The notes under the pieces: model-generated
Databases searched by the model: none
The model's input: the letters and a program-made list of their open reading frames with translations, nothing else
Told to the model about the DNA's origin: nothing
Shown: piece by piece, positions 5,987-62,441 of the stretch
How the letters are laid out: each line of letters begins with the position of its first letter
How positions within the stretch are numbered: the first letter of the stretch is position 1
Made by a program: the position numbers and the translations under genes
NCBI GenBank assembly: GCA_018062765.1
Contig: JAGORR010000001.1
Location: 356,930-420,929 of the forward strand
Direction of reading: 5' to 3'
Source of the DNA: Minisyncoccota bacterium
GTDB taxonomy: Bacteria > Patescibacteriota > Minisyncoccia > Phycocordibacterales > Phycocordibacteraceae
Length of the DNA: 64,000 bases

Positions 5987-6026
5987 TTGCTCCATCTCGG
6001 TGCCTATAGGCACCGAGATGGAGCAA
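5987..6026. repeat. perfect 40-nt palindrome, copy 1 (TTGCTCCATCTCGGTGCCTA|TAGGCACCGAGATGGAGCAA)
   Basis: Read directly. A second copy at 62402-62441 differs only by a compensatory T..A to C..G pair. Confidence 0.9.
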
Positions 6027-8011: not shown

Positions 8012-8464
8012 ATGAAACGCACAGCCATCTTCGTTTCTGCACTCTTGCTGACTCTTTCAGCGATGTCCGCCCCAGTGTACGCGCAGGACATGAATCTTGG
8101 GGGTGGAGCGACCGGTAACGCTAGTACCAATCTCGGCGGAGGTCCGTCAGGTAACGGTACCAATCTGGGGGGAGGCTCTCAGGGGTGCGGATTCCTTTTG
8201 AATCCACTCGACAACGAGTGCAATAGCGACATGACGCTCAATGATCTCCTTAGCAAAATATTGAACGTCATCGTCCAGATAGGTGTAGTCGTGCTCACTA
8301 TGATGCTCGTCTACGTTGGTTTTCTCTTTGTCACTGCCCAAGGGAACCCGGAAAATCTTTCCAAGGCCCGGAGCGCACTCATATGGACGATAATCGGCGG
8401 CTTCCTCGTGCTTGGCGCGAGCGTCATTGCAGAGGCGGTTAAGTCGACGGTTGAAGCGCTCTGA
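8012..8464 (+). CDS. VirB2/TrbC-like two-helix pilin paralogue 1 (signal peptide, NLGGG x3 repeats)
   Basis: Signal peptide ...APVYA/QD. C-terminal TM1-loop-TM2 module VVLTMMLVYVGFLFVTAQGNPENLSKARSALIWTIIGGFLVLGASVI. Confidence 0.7.
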   Translation: MKRTAIFVSALLLTLSAMSAPVYAQDMNLGGGATGNASTNLGGGPSGNGTNLGGGSQGCGFLLNPLDNECNSDMTLNDLLSKILNVIVQIGVVVLTMMLVYVGFLFVTAQGNPENLSKARSALIWTIIGGFLVLGASVIAEAVKSTVEAL

Positions 8465-22411: not shown

Positions 22412-23368
22412 ATGCGCCGCTTGGCACTTTACCTCCTCGCAGCTTCTCTCATACCGCTTGCCGCGGCGGCACAAGGGCTTCCGTCAGGCTCAATCATCCC
22501 GGACCTCGATGAGGGAGATCAGAACCTGCGCACGTGCGCTGCAGGTTGGAAGGCGGTTCTCATAATATCGGGAGGGTTCCTAGAGCTCGCAATTTACATC
22601 GCGATGCTTATCGCCGTTCTCGTTATCGTCTATGCAGGGATTATATTCCTGTTTAATGCGACAAACCCCGAGAACCTGTCGAAAGGGAAAAAGATTCTTG
22701 GAAACGCGGCGATTGGTCTTCTTATTACGCTTTGCGCATGGCTACTTGTGAATACGGTGCTCACAAGCCTGGGCGCAGGAGACATCGCAAGCCGCACAAG
22801 CGTCATAGGTTCAGGCGGCTCGCTCTGTATCACGATACAACCTCCGCAATCTCAAATACCAACCAGTCAGGAAGTAGCTGCCGGTTTGCCACTGGCACCA
22901 CCTCCTCGAGGTACCGGCTCGTGTGACCCGATTGCTGTGCGCGCAGCCGCAGCGGCCGGTGGGTACCAAATCTCGGAGCGAGAGGCGAACACATTTGCCT
23001 GCCTTGCAGGTCCCGAGAGCTCGTGCGGCGCAAATGTCGATGGTGCGACGACGCCTTCTGGGCAGCGTACGAGTGCAGCGGGTCCGTGGCAGAACATTCT
23101 TGGTTTTAAGGATAAGTGCCACTCACTCAACATCCCCGCCTGTGGCAACTTGCAGTGTCACCAGGCATTTTCAGGCGGAGTGGAGAAGTCTGATCCGGCC
23201 TCGAGAGCTCTCGCTGCCAAGTGTCGTCAGGCACTTGCAAACCTTACGTGCGCTGCCGCCGCAGCCGTGTGTCTTAATAACGCGAGCGGAAACGACTTCA
23301 GCGACTGGACTGCGGATTCGCGCAGCTCGAAACAGAAGAAGTGTATTCGCGACCATGCGGGGCTCTAG
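22412..23368 (+). CDS. pilin-like N-domain fused to a Cys-rich lytic-transglycosylase-like (SLT-like) domain
   Basis: 318 aa. Signal peptide. N-module is IAVLVIVYAGIIFLFNATNPENLSKGKKILGNAAIGLLITLCAWLLVNTVL. The C-domain has SLT-like motif order: PESS, GPWQNIL, LNNASGNDFSDW. Confidence 0.6.
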   Translation: MRRLALYLLAASLIPLAAAAQGLPSGSIIPDLDEGDQNLRTCAAGWKAVLIISGGFLELAIYIAMLIAVLVIVYAGIIFLFNATNPENLSKGKKILGNAAIGLLITLCAWLLVNTVLTSLGAGDIASRTSVIGSGGSLCITIQPPQSQIPTSQEVAAGLPLAPPPRGTGSCDPIAVRAAAAAGGYQISEREANTFACLAGPESSCGANVDGATTPSGQRTSAAGPWQNILGFKDKCHSLNIPACGNLQCHQAFSGGVEKSDPASRALAAKCRQALANLTCAAAAAVCLNNASGNDFSDWTADSRSSKQKKCIRDHAGL

Positions 23369-23927: not shown

Positions 23928-24839
23928 ATGCGACGTACTACGACATTGCTCCTGCTTCTCCCGTTGCTACTTACAGCTATGCCCGCGCATGCGCAGTTCA
24001 CCGAGGGCTGGACCATCGTCCCGGCAGCGTGCCATTCGTGCCCTGCGGCTTGGGTTTGCGTACTTGAGATGCTCAACAATCTGGTGACGCTCATCATGAC
24101 CATCGCGGTCTTAATCGTCGTACTCGTCATCACCTACGCCGGCATCCTGCTTGTGTTTACTGCGACGAACCCCGAGAACAAGAGCAAAGCAAAAAGCATG
24201 CTTATTAATGCTGCGGTAGGTCTCGTCATCGCTCTTGGCGCGTGGCTCATCATCGATAAGGTCCTCGAGTCTTTGGGTGCGGGCGGTATAGACGAGACAA
24301 CGCGCGTTATTGGTACCGGTGGCAGCGCATGTGTTGTTGCTCAGGATCCGATCACTGAGCCGCCTGAGGGAACGGATCCATCGCCTATTACTCCCGGTCC
24401 TGGCGGTGGAGGCAGCGGCGCTAATTGCCCGGTCCCGGCGGCGTCCGGGATGGTGGCATTCCCTGCGGAGGCTACAAGCGGTGAAACTGAATACGCAACA
24501 CCGAGTACGGTCGAGAACTTCCTTGCGATGCGCGCCGCAGCGCTTGCCGATGGAATTGACATTAAGGTGACTGACGGATATCGGTCCGAAGCCGAACAGG
24601 TTCAGTTATGGTATCGCTACAATCAGGACACGAGCCAAGTCGCAAGGCCGTGTACGCTAGGTGGCAGCGGTTCAAACCACAACTCAGGTGTCGCTCTGGA
24701 CCTCACCGTCGGCTGTAGAAAGACAGATAGTTCCTGTGATAGCGCCCAATACCGATGGCTTAAAGCAAATGGTTCTCAGTGGGGCTTCAACAACAATTTG
24801 CCTACCGATACGGTGCACTGGTCACCATCGGGTCGCTAG
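23928..24839 (+). CDS. pilin-like N-domain fused to a peptidase M15 (VanY-type D,D-carboxypeptidase) domain
   Basis: 303 aa. Signal peptide. N-module is IAVLIVVLVITYAGILLVFTATNPENKSKAKSMLINAAVGLVIALGAWLIIDKVL. M15 motifs are VTDGYRSEAEQ, SNHNSGVALDL (SxHxxGxAxD) and DTVHW. Confidence 0.75.
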   Translation: MRRTTTLLLLLPLLLTAMPAHAQFTEGWTIVPAACHSCPAAWVCVLEMLNNLVTLIMTIAVLIVVLVITYAGILLVFTATNPENKSKAKSMLINAAVGLVIALGAWLIIDKVLESLGAGGIDETTRVIGTGGSACVVAQDPITEPPEGTDPSPITPGPGGGGSGANCPVPAASGMVAFPAEATSGETEYATPSTVENFLAMRAAALADGIDIKVTDGYRSEAEQVQLWYRYNQDTSQVARPCTLGGSGSNHNSGVALDLTVGCRKTDSSCDSAQYRWLKANGSQWGFNNNLPTDTVHWSPSGR

Positions 24840-28196: not shown

Positions 28197-28362
28197 CAAA
28201 GCGCGAAGCGCGCATGGTCGGGGAGTACCCTGCCTGCGCAGGGTACGTGAGAGACTTGAACGCCGGAGCGATGATTCGTCAGCAGACGAATCCGCGAGGC
28301 AAGGCTATGAAAATTCTCGAGTGACGGCGAGAGAATTATTCCTGGCCAAGCCTTCCCCGGCA
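28197..28362 (+). repeat. tRNA-trailer structured element, copy 1 after tRNA-Leu-CAA
   Basis: Order:
- TACCCTG-cctgcg-CAGGGTA
- GAGAGACTTGAAC, a 13-nt exact antisense of the tRNA T-arm
- GATTCGTC-AGCA-GACGAATC
- AATTCTC-gAGTGACGGCg-GAGAATT
- CCAAGCCTTCCCCGGCA (mimic). Confidence 0.8.
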
Positions 28363-28509
28363 CATGAAGCACGCGCAGCGTGCGAAGGGCTCGTGGGTGG
28401 GACTTGAACGCCGGAGCGATGCTTCATCAGCAGATGAAGCCGTGAGCTGGGGTCGCGGAAAATGCCATGTGACGACATGGCATTTATTCGCGACCAAGCC
28501 ACCCCGGCA
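28363..28509 (+). repeat. tRNA-trailer structured element, copy 2 after tRNA-Leu-CAA
   Basis: Order:
- GCACG-cgcag-CGTGC
- GGGTGGGACTTGAAC
- GCTTCATC-AGCA-GATGAAGC
- GGTCGCG..AAATGCCATGT-GACG-ACATGGCATTT..CGCGACC
- AAGCCACCCCGGCA. Confidence 0.8.
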
Positions 28510-28555: not shown

Positions 28556-29575
28556 ATGACAGAGCCGATGCGATCAGTAGAGCCGACACGATACGACTCC
28601 GTGTATTGGGTCGATACTGACAAGGTCAAACCGAATCCCTATCAGCCCCGGAAGGAGTTCGACGAAGAGCGTCTGAAGTCGCTTGCAGAAAGTATTCGCC
28701 AGTACGGGATACTGCAGCCCTTGACCGTAACACGCGTCGAGATAGCGCGCATGGATGGAGGACTCGCGACCGAGTACGAGCTCATCGCTGGAGAGCGCCG
28801 GCTCCGTGCCTCGAAGCTTATCGGTCTCAAGCAGGTACCGGTCGTTATTCGTATCGGAGAAGAATCAGGCAAGGTAAAGCTCGAGCTTGCCATCATCGAG
28901 AACCTGCAGCGTGAGGACCTTAACGCAATCGACCGAGCGCAGGCACTGAACCAGCTCGTAAAGGAGTTCGATCTCTCTCATGCGGAAGTGGGTGAAAAGA
29001 TAGGACGCTCGCGTGAGTATGTCTCGAACTCCATCCGTCTGTTGGCGCTCCCGCCGCAAGTGCAGCAGGCTGTCGTCAATCGCGAGCTTTCCGAGGGGCA
29101 TGCCCGGGCACTCCTCATGATCGCCGATAAGCCGGTTGAGATGGAAACTCTGTTCAAGGAAATTGTCCTTAAGAAAACGTCTGTGCGCCACGTCGAGCAG
29201 ATGGTGCGTCGACTTGCACAGGACAAGATTCGCAAGCACGACAAGACACCAGAGATGATGGCGCTCGAGAAGTCGCTTACGGAAACCCTAGGTACGCGCG
29301 TCCTCATCGAGAATCGCCCGCAAGGCGGACGTCTCCTCATCGAGTTTTTCTCGCCAGAGGACCTTTCCAATATAGTCTCTCAGCTTGCGACGAAGGAGGA
29401 TACTTCTTTCGGAGAGCCGGGAGCACCAGAGGTGTCCGCAACTTCCCATATCGAACATGCGAACACGTCTCAGATTACGGATGAGGTAGCAACAACTCCG
29501 CTAGCAGCACCAGCACCAGCATCAACAGCAGCAGAGCAGGATGATCTTGATTCCATCAAGAACTTCAGCGTCTAG
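28556..29575 (+). CDS. parB: ParB/Spo0J chromosome-partitioning protein
   Basis: 339 aa. Contains IRQYGILQPLTV and YELIAGERRLRASKL (ParB box), then an HTH region. No parA gene is adjacent. Confidence 0.92.
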   Translation: MTEPMRSVEPTRYDSVYWVDTDKVKPNPYQPRKEFDEERLKSLAESIRQYGILQPLTVTRVEIARMDGGLATEYELIAGERRLRASKLIGLKQVPVVIRIGEESGKVKLELAIIENLQREDLNAIDRAQALNQLVKEFDLSHAEVGEKIGRSREYVSNSIRLLALPPQVQQAVVNRELSEGHARALLMIADKPVEMETLFKEIVLKKTSVRHVEQMVRRLAQDKIRKHDKTPEMMALEKSLTETLGTRVLIENRPQGGRLLIEFFSPEDLSNIVSQLATKEDTSFGEPGAPEVSATSHIEHANTSQITDEVATTPLAAPAPASTAAEQDDLDSIKNFSV

Positions 29576-41963: not shown

Positions 41964-42296
41964 ATGAACATACTCATCCGTTGGCTGCTGTTCGCTCTCG
42001 CTATCTACGTATCTGCATATGTCGTGCCGGACGTGGAGACGACCGTGCCCGCCGCCTTCGTGCTCGCGATCGTACTGGGCCTCATCAATGCGTTCCTGAA
42101 GCCGATTCTCGTGCTTCTGACGCTCCCCATAACGATCGTCACGCTCGGTCTCTTCGCGCTCGTCCTCAACGCACTCCTCGTCATGCTCGCGGACGCCATC
42201 GTGCCTGGGTTCGAGACAGCTGGATTCATTTCAGCGCTCCTGTTCTCAATCGTGCTTGCGCTGGTCGGCTATGTACTGAAGCGCTTCGATGATTAA
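41964..42296 (+). CDS. phage-holin-4-like (YvlD/DUF360-type) membrane protein
   Basis: 110 aa, four TM helices. INAFLKPILVLLTLPITIVTLGLFALVLNALLVMLA is typical of this family. Confidence 0.7.
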   Translation: MNILIRWLLFALAIYVSAYVVPDVETTVPAAFVLAIVLGLINAFLKPILVLLTLPITIVTLGLFALVLNALLVMLADAIVPGFETAGFISALLFSIVLALVGYVLKRFDD

Positions 42297-42902: not shown

Positions 42903-42989
42903 CATCGCGCGCCGCACGCTCTGTGCGGCGCGTTCCTTTATCCCTCATCGCGAGGCATGGTGCTCTACGCGTAGCCTATACTAGAGCGC

Positions 42990-45731
42990 ATGGAGGGAAC
43001 ACGGCAGCTTACGACTCCCGAGGAGGAGCTTGCCTACTTGCGTGCGCAAGTAGAGGAGAAAGAACGCGAGCTCGCGGGGCGCGCGCAGGAAGCACCGCGC
43101 AACACTCTCGTGCACGAGCGTATCCTTCATCACCGGCGCGAGATGCCAGAGACGGTGCTCGCTCCGTCCTACAAGCTACCTGAAGCTGAAGTGGAAGGCA
43201 TCGCGCTGGATCTCGATCCGGATGATAACGACGCAACGATGGCGGAACTTCAGGGAATCATGGAGGAGAAGGGTATCAAGAATGCGCTCTCGGTCCTTGA
43301 AAAGCTCCGGAATCCGCATCTCGATGACGACTTCCATCGATTCCTGGTGCAGTACGTCGTCGCTGGAATGCAGGTGAAGGGGCTCGGGGAACGGGAACCA
43401 GCATGGAAGGCGCTCCACATGACTCTCTACGAGGTCATCCTTCCGGAGCCCGGCAAGGACTCGGACGCGCGAGAGAAGACCTTGAAGGAACTCATCTCCT
43501 CGATGGAGCAGTTCTATGCAGGCATGCTCTCGGTGGGGGATGCGAGCGCGAGCGAGCCGGGCTATTTCTCGATGGAGCTCGCTGTTCCCGCTAATCGTCC
43601 GGAGCTCCTTTTCTATGTCGCTGTGCCTAACGGCAAGCGCGCGCTCTTTGAGCAGCAGCTCTTGGCAACCTTTCCGAACGCGAACATTCGTCCGCAGCCG
43701 AACGATTACAACATATTCAGCGAGGATGGCGTTGCCGTAGGCGCCTCTGCGACGCTAGCTGACAAAGGCGTGCTTCCTCTCAAGGATTATGCTGATTTCG
43801 ACTACGACCCGTTGAATACGGTTCTGGGTGCCTTCGCGAAGATCGAGAAGGCGAGCGAGGGAGCGGCGCTCCAAGTCATCATCGAGCGCGATACGCACCA
43901 CCTGGAACATTACCGCCGGATACTCGGAGCGCTCCGTCGCGGCGAATCGAAGGATCGTGCGCTCTCGATGCCGGAGACATTCGTGGGCGAGGCCGCGCGC
44001 GAGATCGGGTCAGCGCTCTTCCCGGGCTCACGCAAATGGGAGAACGAAGTTGAGAAGAGAGCCGAAAGGAAAGATGGGAACCAGGCTTTGATTGAGCAGA
44101 TAGAGAAGAAGATCGCAGCTCCCATCGTAAAGACGACGCTCCGTCTCATGGTGTCCTCGCCGACCCACACCCGCGCGGAGTCAGGGCTCGCGGACCTTGA
44201 GGCGGCATTCAATCAGTTCACCAACACCGTAGGCAACAAAATCAACTGGAATCGGTTCTCAGGCACCAAGGTACAGAGCCTTTTCCATGCATTCTCTTAC
44301 CGTTTGCCGGCGAAGGACGCGATACCGCTTTCTCTTCGAGAGGTCACGAGCCTCTACCACTTCCCGCCCGAGGGCATCAGCTCTACGCCGCAACTCCGGC
44401 AGTCGCGCTTCACTGCGGCCGCTGCGCCCTTGGATCTCCCTGACTCGGGGACGTATCTCGGGGATAACGAGTTCCGCGGACGGAAGACTGCGGCATTCCT
44501 GTCGCCGGAGGACCGCATGCGGCACCTCTATGTCGTCGGACAGACGGGAACCGGTAAGTCGGTATTCATGAGGAATCTCGCCATACAGGACATCAAGGCA
44601 GGGAACGGCGTCTGCTTCATCGACCCCCACGGGAACGACATCCTCGATATCCTCGCGGCTGTACCTCCCGAGAGATACGAGGATGTCATCTATTTCGATC
44701 CGGCGAACCTGGCGCGTCCGTTCGGCCTCAACTTGCTTGAATACGATGCGAGCCGCCCAGAGCAGAAAACCTTCATCGTTAATGAGATCCTCGCGATATT
44801 CCGCCGCCTCTACGGGGACGTGCCGGAGTCGATGGGTCCTGCGTTCGAGCAGTACTTCCGCAACTCAACCCTCCTGGTGATGGAGGACCCGGCATCGGGC
44901 TCGACCTTACTCGATATCGCGCGAGTCCTTTCGAACAAGGAGTTCCGCGACCTGAAACTCTCGCGAAGTAATAATCCGGTCATAAACCAGTTCTGGAACG
45001 AGATAGCGACGAAGGCTGAAGGAGAGGCATCGCTTCAAAACATCGTTCCGTACATCACTAACAAGTTCGATGACTTCACCGCGAACGACTTCATGCGGCC
45101 AATCGTCGGGCAGCAGGAATCCTCGTTCAAATTCCGTGAGGTGATGGACAACAAGAAGATACTCCTTGTGAACCTCTCTAAAGGAAGGCTCGGGGAACGA
45201 AACGCCAACCTCCTGGGCCTCATCCTCGTCGGGAAGATATTCATGGCTGCGCTCTCTCGTGCAGATAACCCGAGGGCAGACTACGCGCCGTTCTACCTCT
45301 ATATCGACGAATTCCAGAACATAACTACGGACTCCATACCGGGAATCCTCTCCGAGGCTCGCAAATACCGGCTTTCGCTTACCATGGCGCACCAGTTTCT
45401 GGCGCAGGTGGATGAGAAGGTGCGGGATGCCGTGTTCGGGAACGTCGGCTCCATGGCCGTGTTCCGCGTCGGCGAGGAAGATGGCGAGTACTTCGAGAAG
45501 CAGTTCGCGCCGGTGTTCTCCGCGCTCGATTTCGTGAACATAGAGAATTACAACGCGTACGTCAGACTCCTTGCGCGCGGCGTGCCGCAGAAGCCATTCA
45601 ATATAAAGACGCCGCCACCGGCCGCCACGAACCCTGCGCAGGTGGACGACCTCAGAGAGCTCTCAGCACTCGTCTACGGCCGCGACCGTACACAGGTGGA
45701 AAACCTTATCAGAAGCAGGTACATGTCATAA
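42990..45731 (+). CDS. TraD/VirD4-like FtsK-HerA-superfamily ATPase (type IV coupling-protein-like) with a large soluble N-terminal domain
   Basis: 913 aa. Walker A VVGQTGTGKS. Walker B FYLYIDEFQN. SEARKYRLSLTMAHQFLAQ is typical of the TraD/TraG C-terminal region. I found no N-terminal TM helix. Confidence 0.7.
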   Translation: MEGTRQLTTPEEELAYLRAQVEEKERELAGRAQEAPRNTLVHERILHHRREMPETVLAPSYKLPEAEVEGIALDLDPDDNDATMAELQGIMEEKGIKNALSVLEKLRNPHLDDDFHRFLVQYVVAGMQVKGLGEREPAWKALHMTLYEVILPEPGKDSDAREKTLKELISSMEQFYAGMLSVGDASASEPGYFSMELAVPANRPELLFYVAVPNGKRALFEQQLLATFPNANIRPQPNDYNIFSEDGVAVGASATLADKGVLPLKDYADFDYDPLNTVLGAFAKIEKASEGAALQVIIERDTHHLEHYRRILGALRRGESKDRALSMPETFVGEAAREIGSALFPGSRKWENEVEKRAERKDGNQALIEQIEKKIAAPIVKTTLRLMVSSPTHTRAESGLADLEAAFNQFTNTVGNKINWNRFSGTKVQSLFHAFSYRLPAKDAIPLSLREVTSLYHFPPEGISSTPQLRQSRFTAAAAPLDLPDSGTYLGDNEFRGRKTAAFLSPEDRMRHLYVVGQTGTGKSVFMRNLAIQDIKAGNGVCFIDPHGNDILDILAAVPPERYEDVIYFDPANLARPFGLNLLEYDASRPEQKTFIVNEILAIFRRLYGDVPESMGPAFEQYFRNSTLLVMEDPASGSTLLDIARVLSNKEFRDLKLSRSNNPVINQFWNEIATKAEGEASLQNIVPYITNKFDDFTANDFMRPIVGQQESSFKFREVMDNKKILLVNLSKGRLGERNANLLGLILVGKIFMAALSRADNPRADYAPFYLYIDEFQNITTDSIPGILSEARKYRLSLTMAHQFLAQVDEKVRDAVFGNVGSMAVFRVGEEDGEYFEKQFAPVFSALDFVNIENYNAYVRLLARGVPQKPFNIKTPPPAATNPAQVDDLRELSALVYGRDRTQVENLIRSRYMS

Positions 45732-45743
45732 TCACAGCTATAT

Positions 45744-48700
45744 ATGGCAGGCGAGGGTCCAGGAAACGGTAATGGCAGCAAGCTCGCGGAGCAGCTTGCG
45801 AAACTCGTCGAGCAGAAAGGCCTTCAAGGGATGGCAGTCGCTGATGCTGGTGAGGAACAGGTGCCTGCTCAAGTTGCCACCCCCGCTGTTGTTGAACAGC
45901 ATGAAGTGCCCGTTTCCAGCTACGATGAGGCAGCGGTCTCGAAAGCGCACAAGCGATTCACCGCGCTCATAAGGGGGCTTGAGAAACACCCCGAGATACA
46001 GGTACGTCCTGATGCGCTTGCGAGCCTGAAGACGGCATTCGATGCTATGGGTAAGGCAAAAGGCAGGCTGAAGGCTATGGATGACGCGAATGAAGTGAAT
46101 CACGAACGCCGTAAGAAACAGTTGGATATCATCCAGGCATCGTTTTCCGTGATATTCGGAGAAATCGGAAACGAAGTATCCGAAGGGCTGCGCCCGGTCG
46201 ATGGGACTGCGACAGGAAGGAACGAGGCCACTTCGCGCGACGAAGTGGATACGCGCTACTATCCGCTCGCAGATGAGATTTTCGCAAAGGGGTATAACCC
46301 GAATGAGCTCGAATCGTGGCGAAACATCGCTAAGCGAGTCAAAAGGCCGATTCCAGGAAAGCCTTACAACCCGGGGATATCGCTTACTGATCGCGAGATA
46401 CGCGCGGTTCGCGCCGAACTTGCCAAACTCGAGCAGAAGGACCCGATAGTGCTTCCGACTAAAGCTGCGTCAGAACCAGCACCGCAAGTGCCGCGCGAGC
46501 GGGCACGAAAGCCAAAGCGATCGGAAAAGGATCGCGAGTCACGCGCGATTCGCGATGAACCAAGCATATACGACTCACCTGGCCCGATGCGCCGTACCGA
46601 CATGGACCGCATTGATCCTGCGGTCGTATCAGGGGTAGTTGGAACGTTTGACACGAATGCTCCTGATACGGTTACGGAGCCTTCTGGAGCGGATGCCGCC
46701 TCTGAACTCGACGTCGAGCCTGCTATTCACGACAGCACGCCGAGGCTCCCTGCGGATAAGTTCAAGGATGCGACCCCGAAGAGCGTACGCGAGAGTCTGC
46801 GCCGTTCGATACTGAGTATCAAAGAGCTGCCGCCTACGGAAATGCCAGCCGGGGCTATCGATACCTTGCCGCCTGACCTCGGGTTGAGAACCACTACTCC
46901 CGCAAGAGCGGAAGCGCTGAGGTCCGTAGTCACCCCGCCCGGATCGATAGACACGCTTCCTCCGGTCATCGATACTGCGCCGCAAGCATCTGCAGCCCCA
47001 GAGCCTGTGCTGGTTGCGGAGGTAGATCCGGACGCCGCTGATGCGGCACTTGCGCACGCCGTGTTCCCGAGTGCGTCAACGGAAGGTGTAGCAAATCTTC
47101 CCGCAGTGGTGAATTCGGAAGCTACGCCTACATGGCAGCCGCTCTCGGAGCAAGGTCTCACGCAAGAAGAACTTGTGCATCGGCGTGCTGAGCGCCGTGT
47201 GCAGATTGGCGTCGAGGCTGGCCTTACACAGGAGCTTGGCGACATGTACAACGCACGCGAAGCGTACCTCACTGCGTACCGGGCATTTTATGCGAATAAC
47301 AACCTGGCTGCGCGCGCTGCAGTACAGGCAACGAATTCCACCGAGTGGCAGAACTTGAAGCGACTTGAGGCTGCCTCGGCGACAGCAAGCCTTGCATACC
47401 AGCAAGCACTCGAGCGTTCCGCGACGGAACGGCTAACGGCTAACGCGCCTGAGCGCGAGGCGCTGCTACGTGCAAAGGGAGAGGCCAGGTACCTACTTCT
47501 TGTCGGCGTCGGCTGGAATGCGCCGCGGTACGAAGACGGCCGGCTGATGTCTAAAGAGGACTACGTGAACCAGTACATGACGCAGTACCAGGGCCGCGTA
47601 CTCGATCGCTACATGTCTACTATTGCGTGGCGCGAAGTCACAGCCGGGAACGAGAACGCACGCATCGAGACTCGTGCGGAGGCGCTAGGAGCAAAACAAC
47701 GCAACGTCTTCGATAGGATGCGCTCGTTGGTCCAGGCAACGAACCAGGGACTCGAACGGACGCTTACTCCGACGGGCGCTCGCGCATTCCGTATCGTCGC
47801 AGCTGCGGGCGTCGGTACCGTGCTTGGCGGGTGGGCAGCAGGTGCGATGCGTGGTGCCTCGGTTATCGCAGGTATGCTCACTGGCTCCACCGCGGGTGCG
47901 GCAGCAGGCTCCTTGTTCCAGCGTCTCGTGGGTGCGCGCCGGGCAGCTGCCGTTGATACTGTGCGACACTCGCGTATCACAAGTGCCGCAGACTTAACAG
48001 CGGCAGCTGCTGCGTTCCGCAAGGGTGACGCTGCGCAAATAGCAGCTACGCGAAGGCGTTGGGAGATGGGCGTCGCGCTCGGCGTCGCCTTCCTTACGGC
48101 ACGTTCTATGCCGGGACTAGAGCCCGTCGTTACTAGCTCCCTTAGCGATTTGAGGCGCATCGGCGGAGAGATTATGGGAACAGGCGAGAGCGCCGGCGCG
48201 ACAGCGGCCGTACCCACTGGTGGCGAGTCAGCGTCGCCTTCGTCAGCGGTCACGGGAGGCGCTGGCGGCAGTGAAGGCCAGTCTGCGCCTGTCGCCGGGG
48301 GTGAGAGCGGTACGGGAAGCGGAGCACCAAGAGCAGGCGGTGAAGGCTCCGGGGGCGCAGCTCCGCTCGACTCATCCGTGCCGCCACCTGCGAACAATCC
48401 AGGCCCTGCGGGGAGTCCCTTCGGACGCATTCCGGTACCGACGGATTCCGTTCCGCAGGCGGACGCTATCGGGGGATTCGCTCGTGAGTCGGCGATAATC
48501 TCGGGCGGTAACGGAGGTGACGCCGTGTCGAGTGAAGGACTCGACGATATGCGCGCAGTTGCGGCCGAAGTGCGCGGCACCTCGACAGAATACGTGGCAC
48601 GTTCAGGTGACGGCGGCATTAAGCTCGTCGAAGGTCTCCAGCAGCAGCTTGCGCGCGAGGGCATCACTGAGACGACACCAGGCATTTCAGCTATGACGCG

Positions 48701-49547
48701 TGAGATAGCATCGGCTGATACGAATGCGGAAGCCGAGGCAGTCGCGAAGAAATACGGACTCTACAAGCCAGGGGTCACCGATGAGAGTGCAGCAATCGGT
48801 AAGGAAGCTCGAATCAGGATAGACGGAGAGAAGCTCGTGCTTACGGACGCAAAAGGCGAGGCAGTTTTCATAGACGAGAAGAATCCATATAGCGGAAAGA
48901 TGTTTGATAGCAATCCACCACCTCCTGTTCGTGAGATTCCACCGGAAACAAGGGCTTCCGGTGAACGCGTAGCTCCAAGTGAGGCGCCACCACCTGCTCA
49001 AAGAGAAGTAGTCTCGAGCGCAGGACAAGAGCAGATAGTTCCAAGAGAGGAGCCTCCTCGAGTAGCTGGTCAAACGAAGTCCTATTGGGACATGACAGAA
49101 GTCGAGAAGACGCAGCACCTGAACCGACTCTCGATAGCGGACGCGCGACAGGCACGTCTCGATTGGGAGGACTACGCACGTAAGTATGACGCGTATCTCG
49201 AAGAGGTGGCACGCGAGAGGGGAGTTCCTGCAGCCGCGGTTGTGGGAAGTGCTCCCGTCGCGTCCCCCGCTGCCATCGAACGCGATCTTCAACCGGTACG
49301 TGTAGACGCCTCACCAACGCCTGCGTCAGAACCTGCGCCTTCGGCGGCAAAACCCGCACCAGAGCCAGTTCGTCCTGTACCGTCTCCGGAAGGACCACCG
49401 CGCGATACCATTTCTACCGACGAAGCGATCCGTCAATTCGGCGATCCGCAGGCAGCGGCGTCACGAGGAGCAACGCCGACGCCAGCAGCGAGCGAGTCGA
49501 TAACCACGGACGAGGCTATTAACCAGCTTCGTGCGCAGAAGAAGTAA
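45744..49547 (+). CDS. giant low-complexity Ala/Pro/Gly-rich protein with central TM cluster
   Basis: 1267-aa ORF starting 12 nt after the ATPase stop. Coiled-coil N-terminus. IDTLPP repeats. Hydrophobic Gly/Ala segments (FRIVAAAGVGTVLGGWAAGA...). Pro-rich tail with repeated (S/T)TDEAI(R/N)Q. Confidence 0.7.
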   Translation: MAGEGPGNGNGSKLAEQLAKLVEQKGLQGMAVADAGEEQVPAQVATPAVVEQHEVPVSSYDEAAVSKAHKRFTALIRGLEKHPEIQVRPDALASLKTAFDAMGKAKGRLKAMDDANEVNHERRKKQLDIIQASFSVIFGEIGNEVSEGLRPVDGTATGRNEATSRDEVDTRYYPLADEIFAKGYNPNELESWRNIAKRVKRPIPGKPYNPGISLTDREIRAVRAELAKLEQKDPIVLPTKAASEPAPQVPRERARKPKRSEKDRESRAIRDEPSIYDSPGPMRRTDMDRIDPAVVSGVVGTFDTNAPDTVTEPSGADAASELDVEPAIHDSTPRLPADKFKDATPKSVRESLRRSILSIKELPPTEMPAGAIDTLPPDLGLRTTTPARAEALRSVVTPPGSIDTLPPVIDTAPQASAAPEPVLVAEVDPDAADAALAHAVFPSASTEGVANLPAVVNSEATPTWQPLSEQGLTQEELVHRRAERRVQIGVEAGLTQELGDMYNAREAYLTAYRAFYANNNLAARAAVQATNSTEWQNLKRLEAASATASLAYQQALERSATERLTANAPEREALLRAKGEARYLLLVGVGWNAPRYEDGRLMSKEDYVNQYMTQYQGRVLDRYMSTIAWREVTAGNENARIETRAEALGAKQRNVFDRMRSLVQATNQGLERTLTPTGARAFRIVAAAGVGTVLGGWAAGAMRGASVIAGMLTGSTAGAAAGSLFQRLVGARRAAAVDTVRHSRITSAADLTAAAAAFRKGDAAQIAATRRRWEMGVALGVAFLTARSMPGLEPVVTSSLSDLRRIGGEIMGTGESAGATAAVPTGGESASPSSAVTGGAGGSEGQSAPVAGGESGTGSGAPRAGGEGSGGAAPLDSSVPPPANNPGPAGSPFGRIPVPTDSVPQADAIGGFARESAIISGGNGGDAVSSEGLDDMRAVAAEVRGTSTEYVARSGDGGIKLVEGLQQQLAREGITETTPGISAMTREIASADTNAEAEAVAKKYGLYKPGVTDESAAIGKEARIRIDGEKLVLTDAKGEAVFIDEKNPYSGKMFDSNPPPPVREIPPETRASGERVAPSEAPPPAQREVVSSAGQEQIVPREEPPRVAGQTKSYWDMTEVEKTQHLNRLSIADARQARLDWEDYARKYDAYLEEVARERGVPAAAVVGSAPVASPAAIERDLQPVRVDASPTPASEPAPSAAKPAPEPVRPVPSPEGPPRDTISTDEAIRQFGDPQAAASRGATPTPAASESITTDEAINQLRAQKK

Positions 49548-49574
49548 TAGTTTCGCATTGTAACAACCTGAAGT

Positions 49575-49859
49575 ATGGATACTCACACAAACGGAGCACT
49601 CGATATCGGCTCGCTTCCACCCGATGAGCAGGAGGAGGTTCTCCTTACTGCCGGAGACCTTATCATGAAGGAATCCCTAGTGCGGCTCGCGGAGCAGATG
49701 GATGATGCGACCGCAACCGAATTCGATGCGCTCCTCACTAAGGGCGCGAGCGAAGAAGAGATAGCAGCCTTCATACAGACTCGTGTGCCTGGTGCGGACG
49801 TTGCTATGAAGGGCTCCGTTGACGATGTGCAGGGTGCTATACTCGGGGACAAGCCTTAA
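49575..49859 (+). CDS. hypothetical small acidic protein
   Basis: 94 aa, acidic. Same strand as the giant ORF and close behind it. Confidence 0.5.
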   Translation: MDTHTNGALDIGSLPPDEQEEVLLTAGDLIMKESLVRLAEQMDDATATEFDALLTKGASEEEIAAFIQTRVPGADVAMKGSVDDVQGAILGDKP

Positions 49860-49871
49860 TACACATAGCGT

Positions 49872-50363
49872 ATGAATGTCACTGGTACCGGAGTAGCTGT
49901 CGCCCTCGCGGTCGTCTTTGCTCTCGGATTCCTGTTCTTCGGCCCCGCCATACTTACTCCGTCAGCAGTCATTTCTCCCCCTGTCACTATGAATTCAGAA
50001 GAAAACCTAGCAGCTTACGCAGATGTGCTGCCGACCGAGCTCACCGTAACCGATCTGAGTGTCGGGGAAGGCGCTGAGGCTGCGAGCGGCGACCTTATCT
50101 CCGTGAATTACATAGGAGCGTTCCCGGATAACACGATATTCGATGCGTCCGCAAGCCACGGCGGCCCCTTCACGTTCCGTCTTGGCGTGGATTCAGTCAT
50201 CCAAGGATGGCAGAAGGGACTCGTCGGGATGAAGGAGGGAGGTACGCGTATCCTTATCATTCCACCCCATGAGGGATACGGACCTGACGGATACGGCTCC
50301 ATTCCGCCAAACGCGACGCTCATCTTCAAGGTCGAACTCGTAAAAGTTGAAAAAGCTCAGTAG
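49872..50363 (+). CDS. FKBP-type peptidyl-prolyl cis-trans isomerase (membrane-anchored)
   Basis: 163 aa. FKBP core is VNYIGAF.DNTIFDAS......FRLG...VIQGWQKGLVGMKEGGTRILIIPP..GYG. Confidence 0.9.
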   Translation: MNVTGTGVAVALAVVFALGFLFFGPAILTPSAVISPPVTMNSEENLAAYADVLPTELTVTDLSVGEGAEAASGDLISVNYIGAFPDNTIFDASASHGGPFTFRLGVDSVIQGWQKGLVGMKEGGTRILIIPPHEGYGPDGYGSIPPNATLIFKVELVKVEKAQ

Positions 50364-50386: not shown

Positions 50387-50414
50387 AAGCGCCGGAGATT
50401 TCTCTCCGGCGCTT
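50387..50414. terminator. bidirectional terminator hairpin
   Basis: AAGCGCCGGAGA-tttc-TCTCCGGCGCTT. Confidence 0.65.
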
Positions 50415-50446
50415 GTAGTTTCCCACGAAGGGATGGTTGTCTCGGT

Positions 50447-51175
50447 TCAGTCCCGGATGGGATCCTGATACCGCTGTTCGACCTGGACTAGGCGGCCGTT
50501 CGCTTCGACGTAGCCGACGAAGGACGGGCACCATTCTCCCATCGCGTCGAGCCAGATGTCGTTCTGGGCGAACCAGAACCGCGACATGGCGAGCCACATG
50601 CTGTTCTGCATGTCGTACCCATCCAACATCGTGTTGTACATCATCTGGTTGGAGAGCGACGGAATCACACTGCCCAAGAGGTAGGTGGCGCCATAGTCGG
50701 CACCAAACGCACTCCAGGCCTGGATTCCGCCGGCAACCACCGAGCCGATGGTCACGATGTTGCTCGTGTCGCGCTGGGACTTGGCCTTCAGCTGGAAGGC
50801 CTCGATGTGATCCGCCTGACGGCGGAGCTCAGCGAGCCACAGGCGCTGCAACTCGATGCGGCCACAGGCGCGCACCACCTGCGGGATGTGATACCGCAGG
50901 TCGCGTTCGCCGAACTGTTCTATCGCGTAGCGGGTCGACAGGAAGGTCTGACGACCCAAGTCGTCAGTCTTTTCGGTCAGAGGCGCGATGTTCGGGGGCA
51001 GATTGCCCTCGTAGTACATGCCACGACCATCGAGGTTCGCATGGATCGACGCGTTCTGGACGCGCGCTTCGAAGTCAGCCGTCCGTTCCAGTGGTGCGAT
51101 TCCCTGACGGGAAGCGCATGCGCTGAGCGGAACGACGATCGCCATGGCGAGTGCCACGGCACGGAAGATACGCAT
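50447..51175 (-). CDS. hypothetical lipoprotein (long paralogue)
   Basis: 242 aa. Lipobox VVPLSAC. Shares N- and C-terminal blocks with the 51370..51729 gene. Confidence 0.65.
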   Translation of the reverse strand: MRIFRAVALAMAIVVPLSACASRQGIAPLERTADFEARVQNASIHANLDGRGMYYEGNLPPNIAPLTEKTDDLGRQTFLSTRYAIEQFGERDLRYHIPQVVRACGRIELQRLWLAELRRQADHIEAFQLKAKSQRDTSNIVTIGSVVAGGIQAWSAFGADYGATYLLGSVIPSLSNQMMYNTMLDGYDMQNSMWLAMSRFWFAQNDIWLDAMGEWCPSFVGYVEANGRLVQVEQRYQDPIRD

Positions 51176-62401: not shown

Positions 62402-62441
62402 TTGCTCCATCCCGGTGCCTATAGGCACCGGGATGGAGCAA
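62402..62441. repeat. perfect 40-nt palindrome, copy 2 (TTGCTCCATCCCGGTGCCTA|TAGGCACCGGGATGGAGCAA)
   Basis: Read directly. It differs from copy 1 (5987-6026) only at the symmetric positions T/A to C/G. Confidence 0.9.

Follow-up and report, generated by a model that had tools for sequence, protein, structure and literature searches.

Results

The locus and its predicted transcription unit

The gene examined here encodes a protein of 1267 amino acids (aa) on the + strand (45744..49547, ATG start) of a 64,000-nucleotide (nt) window, the whole stretch of DNA that was analyzed, from the chromosome of a Paceibacteria metagenome-assembled genome of the Candidate Phyla Radiation (CPR) (assembly GCA_018062765.1, contig JAGORR010000001.1); all coordinates are positions in this window. 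Its product is annotated as "hypothetical" and is referred to below as the big protein. It is preceded by the gene of a 913-aa VirD4/TraD-like ATPase (42990..45731, +), and the 12 nt gap between the ATPase stop codon (45731) and the start of the big open reading frame (ORF), pointed out in a first-pass annotation made from the sequence without database searches, is borne out by the coordinates. Downstream are the genes of a small acidic protein of 94 aa (49575..49859, +) and of an FKBP-type prolyl isomerase with an N-terminal hydrophobic anchor (49872..50363, +). These four genes are enclosed by two strong hairpins, a terminator-like one on the + strand in the interval between the upstream gene and the ATPase (42907..42933, 12 bp stem with 9 GC) and another between convergent genes (50387..50414, 12 bp stem with 8 GC), with no comparable hairpin inside. 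Because they are bracketed in this way, the four genes are predicted to form one transcription unit, with the hairpins as its 5' and 3' boundaries and the FKBP gene as its last member.

The 1267-aa ORF is a real gene, as it is intact and fully syntenic in its closest relative (P0002, at locus L001), its conserved parts have low dN/dS values (ratio of nonsynonymous to synonymous substitution rates), and substitutions are in excess at third codon positions. Lack of conservation or a frameshift in relatives, which the first-pass annotation had named as signs that would speak against its proposal, was thus not what the comparison revealed. When window genes were compared with those of L001, dN/dS was 0.055 for aa 421-800 and 0.080 for aa 931-1267 of the big protein, 0.028 for the ATPase and 0.052 for the FKBP, with a relaxed value of 0.32 for the spacer (aa 801-930); in the block colinear with L001, 103 of the 146 substitutions fall at codon position 3. 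The 358-aa ORF on the opposite strand (47609..48685, -) was rejected as a gene and is a shadow of the sense frame, as had been supposed, because it shares wobble positions with that frame and is interrupted by an internal stop in the closest relative.

A protein family restricted to the CPR

The big protein had no match in Pfam, NCBIfam, PHROGs or PADLOC, in line with the earlier failure to recognize a family, and profile searches of PDB sequences gave nothing better than E 0.05. An exhaustive HMMER search with aa 430-1267 against 1.84 billion representatives returned 24 proteins at E <= 1e-3. Modules were defined by iterated searches that covered these 24 matches together with the genes that follow the ATPase in 80 related genomes. 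Only two of them recur family-wide, core A (aa ~480-790) and module B (aa ~945-1055), and beyond these and a module C shared with one relative (P0011) the rest of the sequence is unalignable. No Pfam domain was found in 51 proteins belonging to the family or encoded in the slot between the ATPase and FKBP genes. The big protein therefore represents an undescribed family, which is restricted to the CPR.

One relative, P0020 (L082 8001-10919, from a lineage with 32% GC), carries an FtsK-gamma winged-helix domain at aa 79-138 (E 7.5e-13), and the domain is limited to this protein. P0020 also matches six PHROGs through the FtsK-gamma region and, weakly, through module B, none of them a tape-measure family. 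Many members of the family (P0003, P0004, P0005, P0007, P0011 and P0024) have an additional conserved domain in their C-terminal ~120 residues (…V.GG……A…F…P…), and the window protein does not possess it. A word-indexed homology search with the module B family profile gave no matches; neither did one with the core A profile, which was swamped by Gly/Ala low-complexity words. Viral contigs scanned with the ATPase and metagenome contigs scanned with the conserved core yielded no relatives, the core profile being too variable for a pattern scan.

Predicted architecture and topology of the big protein

The big protein is rich in Ala (15.5%), Gly (8.5%) and Pro (8.0%), and all its parts described here are encoded on the + strand. 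An N-terminal arm, or N-arm (aa 1-420, 45744..47003), is hypervariable and has nearly no DNA similarity to the closest relative. Two copies of the hexapeptide IDTLPP in this arm (aa 372 and 402; 46857-46874 and 46947-46964) and two (S/T)TDEAI(R/N)Q motifs at the C-terminus (aa 1224-1231 and 1254-1261; 49413..49526), the latter conserved in L001, had been noticed from the beginning, and the two exact 6-mer repeats found in the protein compare with 0.12 expected from shuffled sequences. Neither pair is a recent duplication, because the DNA of the copies differs. The coiled-coil N-terminus proposed in the first-pass annotation did not fare as well: a crude heptad scan of the whole protein gave no more than two marginal windows of 28 residues, at aa 90-117 and aa 635-662, and only the first of these is N-terminal.

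Core A opens with a conserved helical "stalk" (aa 480-680, 47181..47783) that AlphaFold2 (AF2) predicts with a local confidence score (pLDDT) of 75-92 over aa 490-649, and whose motifs include AExAYLxAYK, in a helix, RYNR..EV, EAL..KG and N..LE.K.GK.GARA.R. Behind the stalk lies a hydrophobic hairpin rich in Gly and Ala, H1-H2 (aa 681-726, 47784..47921); this is the hydrophobic block of the first-pass annotation, now placed by peaks of Kyte-Doolittle hydropathy in 19-residue windows (KD-19) at aa 681-703 (maximum 1.58) and aa 707-726 (maximum 1.34). Small-xxx-small motifs are stacked along the hairpin, with nine overlapping [GAS]xxx[GAS]xxx[GAS] motifs at aa 687-723 that make it glycine-zipper-like, a resemblance at the level of the motif, and the G+A+S fraction of H1 and H2 is 0.53-0.59 family-wide. 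A basic helical loop (aa 727-772, 47922..48059; 10 K+R vs 3 D+E; pLDDT 72-86 at aa 720-769) separates H2 from a short third hydrophobic segment, H3 (aa 773-786, 48060..48101), a "VGAG" helix with a neutral-to-acidic stretch after it.

Next comes a Gly/Ser/Pro-rich spacer (aa 800-930, 48141..48533) that is predicted to be disordered (pLDDT about 30-45). Its composition over aa 801-900 (G 25, S 14 and P 13 per 100 residues) confirms a Gly/Ser-rich spacer, as the Pro-rich tail behind it is confirmed too. Module B (aa 945-1055, 48576..48908) is a small alpha/beta domain, the most widely shared part of the family, with the motifs G.GAI.L, LA.EYGFY.P..ES and DG.L; its core folded alone reached a pLDDT of 83-92, and a fold search against PDB and BFVD gave no match. 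Within the Pro-rich tail lies the helical segment of module C (aa 1096-1160, 49029..49223), common only to P0011.

The three hydrophobic segments and the distribution of charge point to an integral membrane protein, and not to a substrate or fiber handled by the ATPase, as had been proposed at first. In an alignment of 27 family members, net charge stands at +3.0 just ahead of H1, falls to +1.7 at the turn between H1 and H2, rises to +4.2 in the loop from H2 to H3 and drops to -0.9 beyond H3. This asymmetry across H1, H2 and H3 favors, by the positive-inside rule, an N-in/C-out topology that would place the N-arm, the stalk and the basic loop in the cytoplasm and the spacer, module B and the tail outside. 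The same three segments are longer and clearly hydrophobic in relatives such as P0020 and P0004. No signal peptide was found in the big protein.

Rapid evolution of the big protein

The big protein evolves extremely fast. Taking the proteins of the window as reference, global identity across loci has a median of 17% in the big protein, 26% in the small acidic protein, 49% in the FKBP, 64% in the ATPase and 72% in tRNA-guanine transglycosylase (TGT). Within the N-arm, positions 45770-46946 have essentially zero DNA similarity to L001 despite flanks that are 83-90% identical, with a dN of 0.61 and a dS that is saturated. As similarity is lost and dS saturated in that stretch alone, a replacement of the N-arm allele by recombination is suggested; both recombinational replacement and extreme drift stand as explanations of the divergence. 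Hypervariability driven by a diversity-generating retroelement was rejected, as no repeat in the window involves the gene and no reverse transcriptase is among the annotated ORFs.

An invariant pairing with a DUF5663 protein

The small protein encoded downstream has 20 D+E vs 6 K+R and a net charge of -14. Its match to PF18908 (DUF5663) is weak (16.6 bits vs a gathering threshold of 23.7, E 0.012) and spans the model, residues 12-86 aligning with positions 8-81 of 84. Its positional orthologues are DUF5663 proteins, clearly so in some relatives and weakly in others, and an iterated search ties 39 of them in ATPase-seeded loci to the 94-aa ORF, so that it is assigned to DUF5663 by synteny and iterated homology, with the window copy below the threshold. 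Family members are acidic (median net charge -10), helical proteins of about 100 aa in which no signal peptide or transmembrane (TM) segment was detected.

In contexts found through the big protein, a sample that is unbiased with respect to the ATPase, a DUF5663 gene lies downstream in 10 out of 10 cases, and it is present in 33 of the 34 ATPase-seeded loci that carry the big-protein family; the presence of the two is correlated. The big protein and DUF5663 thus form an invariant two-gene unit. The suggestion that the 94-aa ORF encodes a partner of the big protein holds insofar as an acidic, conserved partner is concerned, its "chaperone-like" character being pure analogy.

The upstream ATPase

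The ATPase has a Walker A motif (GQTGTGKS) at aa 517 and a Walker B motif at about aa 769, and its N-terminal ~480 aa correspond to DUF8128 in relatives. Its best PDB match is TrwB, around the P-loop only (E 2.5e-4). Among Pfam models, TraG-D_C (23.4 bits, cut-off 22) and DUF87 (25.2, cut-off 23.2) pass, and T4SS-DNA_transf (PF02534; 16.2 vs 20.1) and FtsK_SpoIIIE (16.8 vs 24) stay below the cut-off; NCBIfam scores are far under theirs (TIGR03743, 39 bits vs 366; NF045973, 33 vs 250). The CD1115 VirD4-like model covers aa 507-831, NCBIfam TraD is also matched, and the NCBI name of the protein is type IV secretion system (T4SS) conjugative DNA transfer family protein. It also matches the phage family phrog_5156 over its full length (E 8.6e-65) and the PADLOC model mad8 (E 7.5e-12).

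No hydrophobic segment was found in the N-terminal 480 aa of the ATPase, whose sole KD-19 peak lies inside the NTPase domain, and no N-terminal TM anchor was found across the ATPases of the 56 loci classified below. No VirB4 or conjugation family was detected in the ~45 window ORFs scanned (mostly of at least 150 aa), with no search aimed at relaxases. Judged by its sequence, the ATPase is a soluble, TM-less, VirD4-like "orphan" type IV coupling protein (T4CP), and tblastn places it, with 51-90% identity in the best segment, at more than 564 loci of CPR genomes. According to the passages of PMC12102498 that deal with such proteins, Patescibacteria have 5,713 VirD4-like genes with only 148 near virB4, and the function of the orphan T4CP homologues is possibly exapted.

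A variable slot between the ATPase and the FKBP

The ATPase lies upstream in seven of the nine determinable contexts found through the big protein. Both ATPase-less contexts belong to the 32%-GC lineage, where the big-family gene and DUF5663 adjoin UvrD and no ATPase is encoded within 8 kb; homologues independent of any ATPase, which the first-pass annotation had regarded as evidence against its proposal, do therefore exist. An 823-aa protein encoded upstream of P0020 was considered as a divergent ATPase and rejected, having no similarity to the ATPase.

ATPase-seeded loci that also have the FKBP (n = 56) fall into three classes: the slot holds the big ORF/DUF5663 cassette in 38, a different long, disordered single-TM protein without DUF5663 in nine, and nothing in the other nine, in which the ATPase is directly followed by the FKBP. 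The alternative slot proteins are unrelated to the big protein and have an unambiguous single TM helix after a basic stretch, and the ATPases of empty-slot loci showed no compensating TM segment. Because the pair and the ATPase are each found in places where the other is missing, the link of the big protein/DUF5663 unit to the ATPase is frequent but facultative. Adjacency is itself weak evidence of a tie to the ATPase, because general synteny is very conserved in these genomes.

Surroundings of the unit

The wider locus is conserved core chromosome and not mobile, since the synteny with TGT and UvrB is kept in more than 40 genomes and the neighbors are housekeeping genes: a holin_4_2-like gene with four TM segments, FKBP, TGT and UvrB hold their position in 43-56 loci, and the remainder of the window encodes GyrA, ClpB, TopA, RelA, IF-2, SerRS, UvrA, UvrC, ParB and similar proteins. 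A mobile element or conjugative island was rejected because of this setting, and the low GC content at third codon positions was rejected as a sign of foreign origin, being similar in DUF5663, FKBP, RelA and IF-2.

Several other features of the window were recorded. The Phage_holin_4_2 family gene (110 aa, 41964-42296) lies ~1 kb upstream of the ATPase and keeps its position in 52 of the 53 loci having such a gene; the gene between it and the ATPase varies, being AIR-carboxylase-like here and encoding SAICAR synthase in relatives. Beyond the unit, a 242-aa ORF (50447-51175, -) has a lipoprotein-like N-terminus (…VVPLSAC), no family match and conservation in two of 81 loci, and an ORF that overlaps it on the + strand (50437-51126) is probably a shadow of it. 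A VirB2-like T4SS_pilin domain (PF18895) occurs in three scattered ORFs (8012-8464, 22412-23368 and 23928-24839), one of them fused to a VanY D-Ala-D-Ala carboxypeptidase domain. Two copies of a 40-nt palindromic sequence (TTGCTCCATCTCGGTGCC TATA GGCACCGAGATGGAGCAA) lie 56 kb apart (5987-6026 and 62402-62441, 95% identity), and a direct repeat of 105 nt (28253-28357 and 28401-28505, 71% identity, 148-nt spacing) adjoins the ParB gene (28556-29575) on its upstream side.

Discussion

Our best explanation, tentatively held and somewhat short of probable, is that the big protein spans the envelope and, exposed at the surface, acts as a scaffold or contact protein, with DUF5663 as its dedicated partner in the cytoplasm and with the genes of both in the variable slot of an operon that runs from the ATPase to the FKBP. 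The data show that the gene is real, that its conservation is modular, that it is paired with DUF5663, that the slot is variable and that the protein evolves at an extreme rate; what we infer of its membrane insertion, topology, surface exposure, binding partners and role can be put together as follows. A long and poorly constrained N-arm would reside in the cytoplasm, and the conserved helical stalk would lead into the Gly/Ala-rich, glycine-zipper-like hairpin and then into the third short hydrophobic helix; outside the membrane, the disordered Gly/Ser/Pro spacer would present module B and the Pro-rich tail. DUF5663, as a small acidic cytoplasmic protein, would bind the conserved cytoplasmic stalk. 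In Paceibacteria the cassette fills a variable slot between the soluble orphan VirD4-like ATPase and the membrane-anchored FKBP, the exposed and unstructured parts of the big protein diversifying rapidly. The connection with the ATPase would be facultative, through a shared operon and possibly a shared complex, and the anchored FKBP prolyl isomerase might plausibly assist the exported Pro-rich part. The scaffold proposed by the first-pass annotation is kept in this explanation, and the coupling to the ATPase that came with it is retained as frequent and not as obligatory.

A number of observations weigh against this explanation. H2 is weakly hydrophobic in the window protein (mean KD 0.89), H3 is short (~14 residues) and pLDDT falls below 50 across the hydrophobic hairpin. 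No adhesin-like or wall-binding fold was found for module B, and the presumed cytoplasmic N-arm varies as much as the presumed exposed parts, so that surface exposure as the driver of diversification is insufficient alone. A tie to the ATPase closer than "facultative" is hinted at by two features: the big gene starts 1-12 nt past the ATPase stop codon in most loci, and a Pro-Pro motif, often of the form Phi-P-P-R, is found at positions 4-18 of 23 of the 50 slot proteins. With a background of 9% per 25-aa window, none of 20,000 simulations reached 23 of 50. The motif also occurs in the unrelated insert-type slot proteins and is missing from both ATPase-less relatives; the form present in the window protein is degenerate (MAGEGPGNG, 45744-45770). 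The motif might serve for docking or reflect some feature of translation.

These last features bring up the idea of a split coupling protein, in which the TM-less VirD4-like ATPase would have in the big protein its dedicated stator in the membrane or its channel subunit. The stalk would dock the ATPase hexamer, the glycine-zipper hairpins would oligomerize into a conduit and DUF5663 would serve as acidic adaptor, DNA or protein being moved across the CPR membrane without a VirB channel. The ATPase shares its P-loop domain with canonical T4CPs (VirD4, TrwB and TraD) and differs from them in having no N-terminal TM anchor, an unrelated ~480-aa N-terminal DUF8128, and a location in the core chromosome with no virB4 in the window. 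The missing anchor is one argument for a split; others are the 1-12 nt spacing, the common predicted transcription unit, the ATPase that precedes seven of the nine family members found independently of it, the Phi-P-P-R motif in otherwise unalignable slot proteins beside the ATPase and not in the two ATPase-less relatives, the FtsK-gamma DNA-binding domain in the N-arm of one relative, and the possible exaptation of orphan T4CPs in Patescibacteria flagged in passages of PMC12102498. On the other hand, nine loci have an empty slot with no TM gain in the ATPase and nine have an unrelated single-TM protein with no DUF5663, the big protein/DUF5663 pair lives without the ATPase in another lineage, and a median identity of 64% for the ATPase vs 17% for its would-be partner is unusual for tightly co-evolving subunits. 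The Pro-Pro motif is, moreover, missing from the window protein itself, and adjacency counts for little given the very conserved synteny. The big protein has no similarity to any T4SS component. We consider a split coupling protein unlikely, if a serious candidate.

The Dot/Icm system of Legionella offers a comparison, since its VirD4-family ATPase DotL works with a membrane partner, DotM, and with the small acidic adaptors IcmS and IcmW. The likeness of the ATPase, the big protein and DUF5663 to that coupling complex is one of analogy only, and DotL has its own TM segments and a full T4SS, whereas the cassette described here is dispensable in some genomes. It is doubtful, though worth stating, that an anchor-less orphan VirD4-type ATPase has been rewired in Paceibacteria into a three-part envelope machine made up of the ATPase, a glycine-zipper membrane protein and a DUF5663 adaptor. 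In such a machine the ATPase would dock on the stalk, possibly via the N-terminal Phi-P-P-R of slot proteins, and would either carry DNA or protein through the CPR envelope or supply the power for displaying a host-contact surface that diversifies rapidly, again with no VirB channel.

The big protein might also not cross the membrane, being instead a largely disordered cytoplasmic or peripheral scaffold whose Gly/Ala block is amphipathic or self-associating. The marginal hydrophobicity of H1 and H2 (KD-19 maxima 1.58 and 1.34), the low AF2 confidence at the hairpin, the short H3, the lack of a signal peptide and the similar variability of the N-arm and the C-terminal parts all agree with this. 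Against it are the longer and clearly hydrophobic versions of the three segments in P0020 and P0004, the positive-inside charge asymmetry over 27 sequences, the unambiguous single TM helix after a basic stretch in unrelated proteins of the same slot and the membrane-anchored FKBP within the same operon, which together make a non-transmembrane scaffold rather improbable.

The proposal closest to that of the first-pass annotation, a secreted substrate or surface fiber that would be recognized and exported by the ATPase and chaperoned for secretion by the small acidic protein, now appears very improbable. It would suit the adjoining T4CP-like ATPase, the constant presence of a small acidic partner, the conserved short C-terminal repeats and the long disordered regions. 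However, a soluble exported substrate is disfavored because the most conserved feature of the family is the internal hydrophobic hairpin with H3; in addition, there are no VirB4 or channel genes within the 64-kb window, the C-terminal arm is not conserved family-wide, and family and ATPase are each also found in the absence of the other.

Least probable of the readings weighed is a DNA-handling membrane tether that would make up, with the ATPase, a two-gene FtsK/SpoIIIE for chromosome segregation or DNA uptake. FtsK has a Pro-rich linker, and the logic of FtsK/SpoIIIE, a membrane part and a long Pro-rich linker joined to a motor of the same superfamily, is like that seen here. The FtsK-gamma domain in the N-arm of P0020, the membership of the ATPase in the FtsK/HerA/VirD4 superfamily, the long Pro-rich linkers and the DNA repair genes nearby (UvrA, UvrB and UvrC; UvrD in the other lineage) could be read in its favor. 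Here, however, membrane part and motor are encoded by separate genes, the motor is of the VirD4-like kind and the membrane domain of FtsK has no homologue; no FtsK domain was found in the big protein and no DNA-binding domain was detected in the window protein, which also lacks the gamma domain, the only relative having it is one without an adjacent ATPase, and the linkage to repair genes may be plain conserved synteny.

Phage tape-measure proteins are likewise long, helical and Ala/Gly-rich, with central Gly-rich hydrophobic segments, and this identity was rejected, as neither the window protein nor P0004 matches any PHROG, the neighbors are housekeeping genes and no phage genes were found near the big gene. 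A defense system was rejected for want of any PADLOC match of the big protein.

The family, its pairing with DUF5663 and the variable slot were not found in the literature searched, which makes no mention of DUF5663 or DUF8128, the class of the ATPase being already known; our data provide the first genomic-context annotation of both domains. The passages of PMC12102498 concerned with orphan T4CP homologues of Patescibacteria, a class into which the ATPase described here fits, count thousands of VirD4-like genes away from any T4SS, acknowledge their function as an open question and make no mention of a downstream big membrane protein, of DUF5663 or of an FKBP operon. The cassette and its variable slot extend that picture, and the locus sets the orphan ATPase of Paceibacteria in a defined and testable context, a unit of four genes in which one slot is variable. 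Lineage-specific hypotheticals are numerous among CPR genes, and if the adjacency is only inherited synteny, the big protein would be one more lineage-specific hypothetical membrane protein. The finding would gain greatly in weight should the ATPase, the big protein and DUF5663 turn out to form one machine. Were its exposed part to mediate host-cell contact, the family would be a candidate for what determines the host specificity of these episymbiotic, ultra-small bacteria.

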